Assembly (NCBI GenBank): GCA_039028615.1
Contig: JBCCHT010000001.1
Coordinates: 576,001 to 640,000, forward strand
Reading direction: 5' to 3'
Source of the DNA: Myxococcota bacterium
Lineage (GTDB): Bacteria; Myxococcota_A; Polyangia; Nannocystales; Nannocystaceae
Length of the DNA: 64,000 nt
The notes under the pieces are model-generated. The model worked only from the letters and a program-made list of their open reading frames with translations. It was not told the DNA's origin and did not search any database. Shown piece after piece: positions 1 through 3,395 of this stretch. Each line of letters begins with the position of its first letter. Positions within the stretch are counted from its first letter, which is position 1. The position numbers and the translations under genes are program-made.

Positions 1-782
1 TCGCGATCGAGGAACGCGGTACGCCGCGGCAAGGCAGCGCCCTGCACCAGGCCGCGCTCCCAGTCGTCACAGACCCGCCGATAGCGAGACGGCGTGCCCA
101 TGTCCTTGAGGTACTCCGAGGTCTCGTAGCCGAAGATCGGCTCTCCGTCCCGATGGGCCCGGGCCAAGATGTCGTGCACCAAGTCGAGCTTGCGACCGGT
201 GGGCAGCGCCCGGGTGAGCGCCGCGTCGACCACGAAGACCCCCGCGGTGACCAGGTTTCGGACTTCGAGCCCGAGGGGATGGGGCTTGGTGTGCAGCGCG
301 ACCAGCCGCCCTCGCGGGTCGAGCTCCACCAGGTCGCTGTCGTGGGGGTGATCGTTGGGGTGCACGACCGCGGTCACCCGAGCCTCGTGTCGCCGATGCG
401 CCTGCACCAAGGCGCGCAGGTCCATCTCGAACACCACGTCACCGAACGCCACCACCCGCGGGCCGTGACCGGGGACCAGCGAGAGGCAGCCTCCCGACCC
501 CAGCGGCTGCGACTCGACGACGACCTCGACTCGGCAACGCTCGTCCGACCACCCGCGGGCCTGGACCTCGATCACCTCGGATCGGTGCCCGGCCAGGATC
601 ACGACCCGACCGATACCCGCTCGCCGAAACTGCTCGATCTGACGGGCGATGAGCGGCACGCCGCCGATGGGCAGCATCGGCTTGGGCCGAGCTCGGGCCG
701 CGTCACCCAGGCGAGTCCCCAGGCCTCCGGCCACGATCACCCCGATGGGGGCGTCCTCGAGTGCGTCACGCGTCGTGTTCAT
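1..782 (-). CDS. Bifunctional sugar-phosphate nucleotidyltransferase (HddC-like) fused to GmhB-type HAD phosphatase; 3' partial, runs off the window
   Basis: Not in the ORF track; read by hand from ATG at 782: MNTTRDALEDAPIGVIVAGGLGTRLGDAARARPKPMLPIGG (NTP-transferase motif), EPLGSGG-like, HPNDHPHDSDLV, YLKDMGTP, then AFLDRD at the window edge (start of the FLDRDG HAD motif of GmhB). GAGGA RBS upstream. Confidence 0.85.
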   Translation of the reverse strand, partial: MNTTRDALEDAPIGVIVAGGLGTRLGDAARARPKPMLPIGGVPLIARQIEQFRRAGIGRVVILAGHRSEVIEVQARGWSDERCRVEVVVESQPLGSGGCLSLVPGHGPRVVAFGDVVFEMDLRALVQAHRRHEARVTAVVHPNDHPHDSDLVELDPRGRLVALHTKPHPLGLEVRNLVTAGVFVVDAALTRALPTGRKLDLVHDILARAHRDGEPIFGYETSEYLKDMGTPSRYRRVCDDWERGLVQGAALPRRTAFLDR

Positions 783-791
783 GGCGAGTCC

Positions 792-2471
792 TCAGGCGAC
801 GGCGAAGACCTGCGCTTGGTACAGGCCGGGCTCCGCGTTCTCGTCGCGTAGCGCCATCAAGGCGTCTTCGATGGGGTCTCGGGTGTGCTCGATGAGCAGC
901 AGCATCGCCTTGGCGACATCGGCCGGCGGCGTCTCGTGGGGCACGGCGACCCGCAGGCGACCGCGCCCGCGGCTCCATTGCGGCTGCCAGTCGACATAGA
1001 CCCCGCCGAGAAGCTCGCGCACGGGCTCGACCAACGTGGCGATCGTGGTCCGCAGCGGCCGAACCGCCTCGCTCTCGATGTGGATCTCGAGCGTGAAGAT
1101 GGGCTCGGTGTCACCGTAGTCGAGCAGCTCGTAGTGCAGGGCCTGGGGCCACGTGGCGGGCTTGATGTGACGGAAGTGGTGCCGGAATCCCCGAGGGGCG
1201 AGCTCAGCGGGGGCCTGGGCCGCATACGCCTCGAGCACCGCGGCGAACTCCGGCCGCATCGTCGTGGCCTCGGCCGAGGTGAACGCGTGCAACGAAGCCG
1301 GCTCCACCGTCTCCGTCGGCCCCAGCTTTCGACCGTCGAAATCGATGCAGAACTCGGCCCGCTGCTGCGCCGAGGGCATCCACGCCTGTGGGTACGCGGC
1401 CAGCAATCCGGGCAGCAGCGTCAGCGCCCGACGGTAGTGCCCGTAGAACAAGAACTGCTCGGCGAAGGGGCTGCGGGGCAGCCAAGCCGGCATCGCGCGG
1501 TTGATCGCGTTGGCGATGCGCACCATGGCGTTGCGGTGCAACGGCGAGATTTCGTAGCCCATGCCGCCTGCGAATGCGGCGAGCTCGATGTAGTGCCCGG
1601 CCAGGAACACGTGATCCTCGAAGCGATCCGCCACCGCCAGCGTGTCACGCAGCTCCTTGACCAAGCCGCCGGGCGCGACGTCCCGCTCCACCGTGGACCC
1701 GTCCAGGCGATCGAGCACCAGCGCCAGCAGCAGCATCAGGTCGAGCTGCCCGTCGAGGAAGGCCTGCGCCTGCGCCCGGTGGCGCTTCAGCTGCGGAATC
1801 ATGGCCGCCGCCGCGCAGATCCCCTCGGTGAGGTGGACCTTGCGACACACGCGGAAGTGACCGTGGTGATGGCCATCGATGGCCAAGTCCATGATCCCGG
1901 AGACGTCCATGCTGCGACCGGCGAGTTCGAAGCGGGTGTCCGGCTCGACTCCGAGGTGCGCGAGGGCGAAGAGCATGTGCCCCATCTCCGCGCCGTCGTC
2001 GGTCTGAATGGTGCGGCTGCGATCGTAGAGCTGTCGCAGGGTGCACCCGAGCCCGGGAATCTCGTGGTCGAACCCGATCCCCGCCATCGCGGCGTAGGCC
2101 AGGGTCTGGAACGGGTGAAAGTCACCGTCGCGATCGAACTGAACGAGGTAGGGCTCCCCCACCCGCTCGGCCCGGCAGTAGCTGACGAGGCCTTCGGTCA
2201 GCCGATGCCCCCCGACGACCGCGTCTCCCCAGCCGTTGAGGAGGTGGCAGTAGTGCGAGAGCATCGCGCCGTCCATGATCTCGCCCAGTCGTCGCTGCAT
2301 CGCGTCGACCACCAGCGCGTCGGCCTTGGCCGCGGCGGCTTCGTCGAGCGCGGGGGACTCGGCTTCGAGCTGGTCGTAGAAATCCGAGACGGCGTCGGCC
2401 TCGGCGTCGCTCAGCTCGACGGGCCACCACTCCAGGGCGTCGTGATCGTGCTCGTGGTTCGATGTACACAT
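792..2471 (-). CDS. Hypothetical 559-aa His-rich protein, possible metalloenzyme
   Basis: Long ORF tightly packed between gmhA and the nucleotidyltransferase. Start moved to MCTSNHEHDHD (ATG 2471, GAGGA RBS). Motifs FHPFQTLA, GHML, CRKVHLTE, AGHYIE, YGHYRRAL. Confidence 0.8.
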   Translation of the reverse strand: MCTSNHEHDHDALEWWPVELSDAEADAVSDFYDQLEAESPALDEAAAAKADALVVDAMQRRLGEIMDGAMLSHYCHLLNGWGDAVVGGHRLTEGLVSYCRAERVGEPYLVQFDRDGDFHPFQTLAYAAMAGIGFDHEIPGLGCTLRQLYDRSRTIQTDDGAEMGHMLFALAHLGVEPDTRFELAGRSMDVSGIMDLAIDGHHHGHFRVCRKVHLTEGICAAAAMIPQLKRHRAQAQAFLDGQLDLMLLLALVLDRLDGSTVERDVAPGGLVKELRDTLAVADRFEDHVFLAGHYIELAAFAGGMGYEISPLHRNAMVRIANAINRAMPAWLPRSPFAEQFLFYGHYRRALTLLPGLLAAYPQAWMPSAQQRAEFCIDFDGRKLGPTETVEPASLHAFTSAEATTMRPEFAAVLEAYAAQAPAELAPRGFRHHFRHIKPATWPQALHYELLDYGDTEPIFTLEIHIESEAVRPLRTTIATLVEPVRELLGGVYVDWQPQWSRGRGRLRVAVPHETPPADVAKAMLLLIEHTRDPIEDALMALRDENAEPGLYQAQVFAVA

Positions 2472-2481
2472 GGCGAGTTCC

Positions 2482-3135
2482 TCACTGGGCGGCGTTGGCC
2501 GGGCCCTGGGCCATCGCGTGGGCAATGGCGTGGCAGACCACGCTATGGGCGTCTTCGACGCTGAGATAGTCGTGTTGGGGGACGTGCACGCAGATGTCGC
2601 AGGCGGCCGCGAGACGACCTCCGTCGAAGCCCACGAGGCCGACGGTTCGGGCCCCGCGGTCCCGAGCGAGCTCGATGGCGCGTACGCAGTTCTCCGAGTT
2701 CCCCGAGGCCGAGATGGCCAGCACCACATCGCGTGGCTCGAGCGCGGTGAGCTGGCCGGCGAACACGTTCTCGTAGCCCGTGTCGTTGGCCAGCGCGGAG
2801 AAGGTGCTCATGTTGCCGTTGAGGCAGTGCGTGCGCAGGACGGGCGGCAGCCGAGCCGTCACCGCGCTCAAGTCGTTGGCCAGGTGCAGCGCGGTCGTGC
2901 TGCTACCCCCGTTGCCGAACAGGTGGGCCGTGCCCCCCCGGCGCCGGGTCTCGTCCAGCGCATGCACCGTGGCGGCGACTCGATCGGTGGGAACCCGAGC
3001 CAGGAGCTCGGCCACGCTTCGCAGGTGATCGTCGATGACCGACTCGAGGTCGAAGGCGTCAATGGTGGCGGCGTAGGGTTCCACGGCAGTTTCGATCGTC
3101 GAAGGAGAGGGAGAGGAAGGAAGGGGTGACGACAC
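2482..3135 (-). CDS. gmhA: Sedoheptulose-7-phosphate isomerase (phosphoheptose isomerase, SIS domain)
   Basis: GNGGS, SALANDxGYENVFxxQL, ISASGNSxN and EDAH...H motifs. Start uncertain (GTG 3135 chosen). Confidence 0.9.
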   Translation of the reverse strand: MSSPLPSSPSPSTIETAVEPYAATIDAFDLESVIDDHLRSVAELLARVPTDRVAATVHALDETRRRGGTAHLFGNGGSSTTALHLANDLSAVTARLPPVLRTHCLNGNMSTFSALANDTGYENVFAGQLTALEPRDVVLAISASGNSENCVRAIELARDRGARTVGLVGFDGGRLAAACDICVHVPQHDYLSVEDAHSVVCHAIAHAMAQGPANAAQ

Positions 3136-3194
3136 GGGCCAGCAAGCCAGCCCGCATCGCCACCGATGCCGCACCGAAGCGCGACGATGGGAGC

Positions 3195-3395
3195 TCAGAA
3201 GGGCAGGCCGGGGAGACCGGGGAGGCGACCGATCGGCTGCACGCCGGGCAGGTCGCAGCCAGTGCAGCCCTGCACGCAGCAGCCGGGAACCGGCACGCCA
3301 CGGGCTCCGCCGGTGGCCGACGCCAGGTCGTCCTTGGACAGAGCCTTGCCGGGGGTGCGATTGCGACGCGAGAGAATGCGCTTGCGGTTCTTCAT
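3195..3395 (-). CDS. Putative RiPP precursor peptide (66 aa; double-glycine leader, Cys-rich core)
   Basis: MKNRKRILSRRNRTPGKALSKDDLASATGG|ARGVPVPGCCVQGCTGCDLPGVQPIGRLPGLPGLPF. GAGGAAA RBS precedes the ATG; first gene of the operon. Confidence 0.7.
   Translation of the reverse strand: MKNRKRILSRRNRTPGKALSKDDLASATGGARGVPVPGCCVQGCTGCDLPGVQPIGRLPGLPGLPF

Follow-up and report, generated by a model that had tools for sequence, protein, structure and literature searches.

What does the operon that crosses the left edge of the window make? The window is the whole analysed stretch of 64,000 nucleotides from a Nannocystaceae genome (G000:C1:576001-640000, its position 1 being G000:C1:576001). The original prediction had seen here a small double-glycine-leader, Cys-rich peptide beside genes for an activated heptose and had proposed a heptosylated, ribosomally made peptide with post-translational modifications (RiPP). 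We found that a precursor with the motif G-C-x-x-Q-x-C accompanies three core enzymes: a His-rich barrel protein, a family 4 glycosyltransferase (GT4) with a domain resembling a RiPP recognition element (RRE), and a family 2 glycosyltransferase (GT2). The sole dedicated sugar supply at the source locus consists of GmhA, HddA, GmhB and HddC. We consider it reasonably probable that the operon represents a new class of glycosylated RiPP, in which guanosine diphosphate (GDP)-heptose would be made, the RRE-bearing GT4 and the GT2 would glycosylate the core, with heptose at the source locus, the barrel protein would modify it, and processing and export would be supplied in trans.

The source genome G000 (12.27 Mb, 68% GC, 96.7% complete) carries the whole operon on the minus strand, and its closest homologues belong to Nannocystaceae-type myxobacteria. 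In transcriptional order, with window positions or, left of the window, positions on contig C1, the features are:

3195..3395, minus strand: precursor peptide of 66 amino acids, with a basic leader containing RTPGK and a double-glycine motif, the core GCCVQGC at residues 38-44 and a Pro/Gly-rich follower; homologous precursors occur in family loci.
3085..3197, minus strand: stem-loops in the interval between precursor and gmhA (-47.1 kcal/mol, z -3.5, 0/200 shuffles equally stable).
2482..3084, minus strand: GmhA-like sedoheptulose-7-phosphate isomerase (Pfam SIS_2, E 1e-18; NCBIfam gmhA, 100.5 bits).
792..2471, minus strand: family-defining protein of 559 amino acids, an (alpha/alpha)6 barrel plus a C-terminal alpha/beta domain by predicted structure and alignment, with no family match.
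1..782 in the window (G000:C1:575460-576782 in full, 540 bases lying beyond the left edge), minus strand: fusion protein of 440 amino acids in full, an HddC-like nucleotidyltransferase joined to a GmhB-like phosphatase.
C1:574462-575466, minus strand, left of the window: HddA-like GHMP kinase, its start overlapping the gmhB stop (NCBIfam NF049969 HddA, E 6e-31, 108 bits).
C1:572974-574449, minus strand, left of the window: GT4 of 491 amino acids (PF00534, E 4e-23) with a C-terminal RRE-like domain at residues 384-491.
C1:572144-572977, minus strand, left of the window: GT2/GT7C-like transferase of 277 amino acids with DxD and WGWED motifs.
C1:571117-572190, minus strand, left of the window: polysaccharide-deacetylase-family protein (PF01522, E 2e-16) that by eye appears to carry a lipoprotein signal.

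The four genes of the window are co-oriented in the predicted order, and no lipopolysaccharide (LPS), capsule or S-layer gene lies between them. The last five genes of the operon overlap or nearly abut. The kinase and the transferases that had been expected left of the window are present. The kinase found directly at that side is the HddA-like GHMP protein, while the expected glycosyltransferase is represented by the GT4 and the GT2 and not by the GT9 or AAH type that had been suggested. Two other expected genes did not turn up in the cluster: the three C39 exporters (PF03412) of the source genome all lie elsewhere, none near the operon, and no radical SAM enzyme occurs at the source locus. 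The operon has no dehydratase either. The annotated genes left of the window include no flippase, polymerase or capsule exporter within the operon, and a search for a sigma-70 promoter found none. For the gmhA-like gene the probable start codon is GTG at 3084, although translation might also begin upstream, at the GTG of position 3174. The stem-loops ahead of it probably stabilise the precursor message or attenuate read-through.

The 66-residue open reading frame (ORF) is, by the marks of its sequence, a real gene. It has a GAGGA ribosome site at its start and a third-position GC of 0.85, and over 18 leader codons its comparison with four relatives gives 6-7 synonymous against 1-3 non-synonymous changes. 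Across the 12.27-Mb genome the strict core motif has a single occurrence, the one at this locus, and a looser rule yields three matches. For comparison, 32 genome and 41 metagenome loci were fetched, several of them cut by contig ends; the genome tallies below are on 33 loci, with the source locus included. Short ORFs that contain G-C-x-x-Q-x-C and reach a stop within 45 codons were counted as precursors; as this rule was drawn up after the first matches were known, its letters are invariant in part by construction. The motif was found in 30 of the 33 genome loci and 32 of the 41 metagenome loci (62/74 together), as compared with 4/222 shuffled loci. Among the three genome loci without it, two are truncated upstream and one is that of an archaeal barrel-only homologue.

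The conserved unit proved to be a core of 7-8 residues, which reads GCCTQGCC in 38 of the 72 distinct precursors, and not the 36 residues after the double glycine. Followers are unconserved, and some precursors stop directly after the core, for instance right after GCCTQGCC; in Pseudoalteromonas the precursor occurs in 2-3 tandem copies. The double-glycine leader of the original prediction stands at the source locus but not as a family trait: 25 of the 72 distinct precursors have no GG/GA within the 30 residues before the core, and GG was for this reason rejected as a universal cleavage site. Variant cores occur in three further loci, where Gln and the later Cys are kept but the first Cys has moved or given way to Thr/Ser, and in the divergent cores GTTFQTCC and GSTSQECC only Gln+4 and Cys+6 are retained. 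The first core Cys was likewise rejected as an invariant residue, since it is built into the search rule and Thr/Ser variants exist. Twelve family precursors compared with the NCBIfam models gave no match. The GCxxQ element may resemble the alpha-2-macroglobulin thioester motif. A Thr-rich core subtype (GCTTQCC and variants, often in 2-3 copies) was noted in L012, L074, L075, L076, L078, L083, L086 and L088. Taken together, these loci contain LanB, LanC, radical SAM/SPASM, carbamoyltransferase or GT9 genes and are candidate lanthipeptide-glycopeptide hybrids.

Homologues of the 559-residue protein numbered 79 in one search, and a profile search returned 473 cluster representatives at E<=0.001, many of which match one domain only, and 111 at 1e-30. 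The family extends over Myxococcota, Bacteroidota, Proteobacteria and Acidobacteria, with Pseudoalteromonas luteoviolacea DSM 6061, Enhygromyxa salina DSM 15201, Corallococcus, Chitinophaga, Kordia and Fulvivirga among its cultured carriers. For the P. luteoviolacea locus L029, a search among RNA runs listed no holder, which speaks neither for nor against expression. In the neighbourhood check that had been proposed for these homologues, GT4 and GT2 genes, like the precursor, are each present in 30 of the 33 genome loci. Other neighbours are less regular, with a deacetylase in 17 loci, a WecB-like epimerase in 12 and a C39 exporter in nine. The variable genes are mostly for sugar tailoring and also include carbamoyl-, methyl- and sulfotransferases, GT9, GT11 and GT25. 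The conserved precursor family and the RRE-like domain on the GT4 both support a cluster of the RiPP type.

The GT4 has 112 homologues at E<=1e-30. Its C-terminal 108 residues were modelled from a 28-sequence alignment (predicted local distance difference test, pLDDT, 87.7) as three strands and a winged helix, and RiPP proteins make up 13 of the top 21 structural matches to this tail. These include MibB (Z 6.4, root-mean-square deviation (rmsd) 3.0, 74 residues aligned), the RRE of PbtF (Z 5.7, rmsd 3.1, 73/86 aligned) and PqqD (Z 4.8), as well as TbtB, ThcOx, MccB, NisB and two lasso B1 proteins. The tail makes the GT4 look peptide-directed, which the modelled structure supports without proving. 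As for the sugar, the best NCBIfam models of the GT4 include MshA and BshA, which we take to be users of uridine diphosphate-N-acetylglucosamine (GlcNAc). The 277-residue GT2 matched nine NCBIfam models at E<=0.1, none of them of the SunS type, for which a model is presumably in the library. Distances between HddA proteins correlate with those of the GT2 at a Spearman coefficient of 0.71, and with those of the GT4 and the barrel at 0.49 and 0.52; the pairs are not independent, and these values are a lead only. In one homologue, P0289, GT4 and GT2 are fused.

The third constant enzyme, the 559-residue protein, has no Pfam or NCBIfam match, nor did Pfam assign a family to the barrel in 41 distant homologues. 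Its predicted model (pLDDT 94.6) consists of an (alpha/alpha)6 barrel at about residues 39-373 and a C-terminal domain at about residues 400-545 with a weak likeness to a DUF4268 / type III chaperone-like fold. Residues H76, H119, H165, C209, H213, E216, H293, E296, H345 and R348 are invariant in 77 homologues, the barrel residues being kept also in 15/15 distant barrel-only homologues, and each of six alternate helices bears one of the six invariant His on it or just ahead of it. We read the barrel protein as a putative enzyme of metal-binding or acid-base type, whose substrate would be the glycosylated core.

Fold matches to families GH76/88/105, terpene cyclases, cellobiose 2-epimerase and AprG are tied at Z 12-14, which is near the level that helical proteins reach through their common arrangement. 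The glycoside hydrolase 3k11 gives Z 14.0 (rmsd 4.8, 279 aligned), cellobiose 2-epimerase 5zig Z 13.0 (rmsd 4.2, 275 aligned) and AprG Z 12.5. The HxxE and HxxR motifs of the protein resemble those in the cellobiose 2-epimerase/AGE sequence, and the (alpha/alpha)6 fold is shared with AGE-type enzymes, GH76/GH88/GH105 and AprG. All of these enzymes differ, however, in that identity is about 10%, Z ties with terpene cyclases and transcobalamin, and no profile-profile signal was obtained, while the present barrel has its six invariant His and an extra C-terminal domain. With hhalign, the barrel profile reached a probability of at most 0.5% against AGE, with templates of only 3-4 sequences, and of 0.2% against LanC, with only three LanC sequences, both too shallow to exclude homology. 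Foldseek found no match to the barrel at E<=0.001, the family profile gave nothing significant among PDB sequences, and the protein has no Pfam LANC_like match; LanC is absent from the 50 structural matches listed, which does not exclude LanC. A role of the barrel as a substitute LanC was rejected, as members with LanB carry their own LanC.

In a rival explanation, the His-rich enzyme would carry out the step that defines the class, a cross-link or an oxidation (Cys-to-Gln or Cys-to-Cys/Thr, for example), with glycosylation serving as transient activation or as secondary decoration. It would account for the persistence of Gln+4 and Cys+6 alone in the divergent cores, for the invariance of six His, one Cys and two Glu even in the distant barrel-only homologues, and for the two loci (L034 and L100) where such homologues occur apart from any GT or precursor. 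We nevertheless find it rather remote: both glycosyltransferases are as constant as the barrel, and there is no profile similarity to LanC (with the three sequences compared), which LanB-containing members supply themselves.

Several relatives of the barrel protein deserve mention. Barrel-only homologues of 350-415 amino acids (P0127-P0156; loci L034 and L100) keep all six His; neither of these two loci, one of which is labelled Micrarchaeota, has a precursor or GT nearby, and these homologues appear to form a separate enzyme subfamily. In a single homologue, P0094 (L072:2-2107), a GmhA-like SIS domain is fused to the barrel protein; gmhA and barrel are separate ORFs in the close relative L071, so the fusion may be a read-through. 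The C-terminal domain is also found behind NucS/PD-(D/E)XK-like nuclease domains (weak Pfam matches) in unrelated proteins of about 350 amino acids (P0157-P0217).

Which sugar would be attached? At the source locus GmhA, a GHMP-type kinase, GmhB and a nucleotidyltransferase give all four enzyme types of a heptose route, and the best PDB matches of the GmhA-like protein are phosphoheptose isomerases (E 7e-22). As had been predicted, this route appears to be the cluster's own: gmhA, hddA and the HddC-GmhB fusion are single-copy in G000, where neither HldE nor GT9 was found at 96.7% completeness, and the route would thus not serve the LPS core. Across the 33 loci we counted hddA in 22, hddC in 23, gmhA and gmhB in 16 each and all four in 14. 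HddA-like genes are enriched in these loci (22/33) over random genomes of the same phylum (11/80) and of the Pseudoalteromonas class (6/80), samples from which the centre genomes were excluded and in which related genomes do not count as independent. A tree was built from 22 cluster and 18 non-cluster kinases, leaving out three further non-cluster loci for which no frame was extracted; in it the cluster copies fall on both sides of a 100/100 branch, and a single clade is rejected (approximately unbiased test, p 0.000125); one long branch and a compositional bias were flagged. The cluster HddAs do not form one clade, which implies at least two recruitments or replacements. Proteobacterial loci mostly hold HddA and HddC only, and gmhA-like genes occur elsewhere in 5/5 such genomes tested (below the cut-off, so that some may be DiaA), as a branch from the host LPS route to GDP-heptose would require. 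Two Chitinophaga genomes have all four heptose genes at another locus. We regard heptosylation at the source locus as likely.

GmhA, HddA, HddC, GmhB, GT2, GT4 and WecB are typical of polysaccharide loci, and a separate locus of that kind is present in Chitinophaga. That the operon is just a locus for surface polysaccharide or LPS, its small ORF having arisen by chance, is nonetheless very improbable and largely refuted. The precursor is conserved across phyla, the GT4 has its RRE-like domain, the operon contains no flippase, polymerase or capsule exporter, and the genome has no GT9 or HldE. Of the observations that the original prediction had named as refuting it, those that could be looked for in this analysis did not turn up.

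A number of results weigh against the reading as a heptosylated RiPP. The RRE-like matches of the GT4 tail have Z 4-6, below 8, and tie with the non-RiPP winged-helix proteins CmlS (Z 6.2) and MINA53 (5.6); Foldseek gave no match to the tail at E<=0.001. Profile comparisons lend no sequence-level support to a barrel reaction, and the source cluster has no peptidase or exporter. All heptose enzymes score below their NCBIfam equivalog cut-offs (gmhA 100.5 of 209 bits, HddA 108 of 600, HddC 44.5 of 300, GmhB_yaeD 124 of 149.6), so that the exact sugar and nucleotide are inferred, the HddA cut-off of 600 being reached in 0/162 genomes searched. GmhA has D/E at two positions where the solved GmhA has E/Q, and another higher-carbon sugar or nucleotide is possible. 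In eight of the 33 loci gmhA, hddA and gmhB are all absent from the fetched flanks. Two Fulvivirga genomes contain no HddA but only the ADP-heptose route (gmhA, HldE), and their clusters hold a GT9; in the Flavobacterium metagenome-assembled genome G123, which may be incomplete, no gmhA, HddA or HldE was found. To judge by the genes, the family would use heptose often, but variably and not in every member.

The loci without heptose genes, the preference of the GT4 for MshA-type models and the moderate HddA-barrel correlation would also fit a peptide that carries common sugars (GlcNAc, N-acetylmannosamine (ManNAc) or a hexose), with the heptose genes as passengers or serving another acceptor. 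That explanation we judge improbable, given that the four single-copy heptose genes are interleaved and closely coupled with the core genes at the source locus, that they are enriched over background and were recruited at least twice, and that the operon has no other GT or acceptor.

Within the preferred reading of a heptosylated RiPP, GmhA, HddA, GmhB and HddC would make GDP-D-glycero-alpha-D-manno-heptose. The GT4 would then hold the precursor via its RRE and place the first sugar on a core Cys; the first position can be Thr/Ser in some members, as in S/O-glycocins. The GT2 would add the second sugar, one of the two enzymes transferring the heptose. We slightly prefer N-acetylhexosamine (HexNAc) from primary metabolism as the GT4 substrate and heptose as that of the GT2 over direct S-heptosylation by the GT4. 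The MshA-type scores of the GT4 and the closer tracking of HddA by the GT2 lean to HexNAc first and heptose second, an order with which the presence of WecB and deacetylase genes would make sense as well; the product would be a Hep-HexN(Ac)-S-Cys unit. The barrel would next work on the glycosylated core, either epimerising a sugar or forming a cross-link through the invariant Gln and the second Cys. Leader removal and export would finally take place in trans, and the exported deacetylase would trim an N-acetyl group.

A bolder version can be entertained only tentatively, as a whole: the RRE-guided GT4 and the GT2 would build a heptose-containing glycan on the minimal GCxxQxC core, the six-His enzyme, of a new (alpha/alpha)6 family, would carry out an unprecedented step, such as ring closure via the invariant Gln, the second Cys or the sugar, and the sugar set would be swapped between lineages, with GDP-heptose (recruited at least twice), ManNAc, GT9 heptose, carbamoyl or sulfate decorations as its variants.

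The peptide might instead serve as a scaffold or sulfur donor, a GT S-glycosylating its Cys with heptose and the barrel and proteases then freeing a small thio-heptose or sugar-amino-acid metabolite, by the logic of the lincomycin thio-octose. Here the shortness of the core (7-8 residues) with its unconserved follower, the mainly sugar-tailoring accessory set, the S9 peptidases in five scanned loci (L012, L025, L074, L080 and L085) and the mostly carbohydrate-enzyme top fold matches of the barrel would find an explanation. The lincomycin module (LmbT/CcbT) offers a precedent: LmbT is a GT-B S-glycosyltransferase that uses a GDP-linked higher-carbon (C8) sugar (PMC12945683). Its acceptor, however, is ergothioneine and not a ribosomal peptide. 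The nearest solved GT4 relatives listed include mycothiol-, bacillithiol- and GDP-mannose-type enzymes, and LmbT is not among them. We regard the scaffold explanation as unlikely. That several Cys, Gln and Gly are conserved jointly would suit a product that is itself a structured peptide, nine of the 33 loci have C39 peptidase-exporters, and LanB/LanC or radical SAM enzymes, whose targets are peptide cores, occur in some hybrid members.

How does the family compare with known systems? Glycocins (sublancin/SunS, thurandacin, glycocin F) have a conserved, disulfide-stabilised core of 35-45 residues. Common to them and the present family are a ribosomal precursor rich in Cys, a cluster-encoded GT2, probable S-/O-glycosylation and, in many members, a double-glycine-type leader. 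In contrast, the family has a core of 7-8 residues, two GTs of which one is a GT4 with an RRE-like domain, a constant novel barrel and often the heptose route, and the source cluster lacks both a C39 exporter and a thiol-disulfide oxidoreductase. Judged by GT type, core architecture and in-cluster exporter, all of which differ, the source cluster is not a glycocin cluster. The GDP-D-glycero-alpha-D-manno-heptose pathway (GmhA, HddA, GmhB, HddC) serves S-layer, capsule and flagellar glycans. All four enzyme types recur here, HddC being fused to GmhB, but the source genes lie in a peptide operon, score below equivalog cut-offs and are free of polysaccharide assembly genes. The ADP-heptose system of LPS differs further, as G000 has neither its HldE kinase nor a GT9 heptosyltransferase. 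The GT of the GG-Bacteroidales peptide system (TIGR04157, glyco_rSAM_CFB), presumably linked to a double-glycine precursor, is also a GT4; the source GT4, however, scores 42.6 bits against its cut-off of 400, and no radical SAM enzyme is present at the source locus.

The family appears real, widespread and, apparently, undescribed, which makes it a candidate new RiPP class. In the literature covered, which leaves out most subscription journals, we found no description of the family or of heptose on a ribosomal peptide product, although a genome-mining table could list such loci. The accessible part of a paper according to which no RiPP class other than the glycocins, with their GT2 enzymes, is defined by glycosylation makes no mention of heptose (PMC11912497), and RiPP clusters of Pseudoalteromonas are described as uncharacterised in another (PMC13385065). 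Glycosylation is rare among RiPPs, and the class defined by it relies on GT2, as far as the former source goes (PMC11912497). If correct, the present reading would add a second glycosylation-centred class, a peptide glycosyltransferase of GT4-RRE type, what is probably the first RiPP-borne heptose and a His-rich enzyme family new to Pfam and NCBIfam. The minimal set would be four genes plus the sugar supply, and site-specific glycosylation of peptides would gain a useful tool in a leader-directed heptosyl- or HexNAc-transferase.

Other loci of the source genome and of the family were noted along the way. The C39 transporter on contig C18 is the one most similar (50-57%) to exporters of homologous clusters, and it sits beside another precursor type. 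It was rejected as the dedicated exporter, as it adjoins an ATP-grasp-like gene and a repeat precursor. This cluster (L056:10227-14717; G000:C18) comprises the C39 exporter, an HlyD-like gene, the ATP-grasp-like gene and a 74-residue precursor with four TTLAIGEE-type repeats, and is presumably a plesiocin-like graspetide cluster. Another of the C39 exporters, at G000:C1 ~732-737 kb, lies close to a precursor-like ORF of its own, which has a double glycine and a CxC core. About 27-31 kb left of the window lies a small operon with a poly-Cys stretch in its first ORF (G000:C1:544977-548977, L002:3977-7977), which by eye we take to be a YcaO / SagB-type azole-forming cluster. In four of the 33 loci (L007:8682-9542, L010, L011, L016) the cluster adjoins a conserved ORF of about 290 amino acids that matches no Pfam or NCBIfam model; by eye it may be a further GT-A transferase. 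At L030:1414-9609 a class I lanthipeptide cluster stands directly upstream of the family locus, and the two apparently share one C39 exporter.

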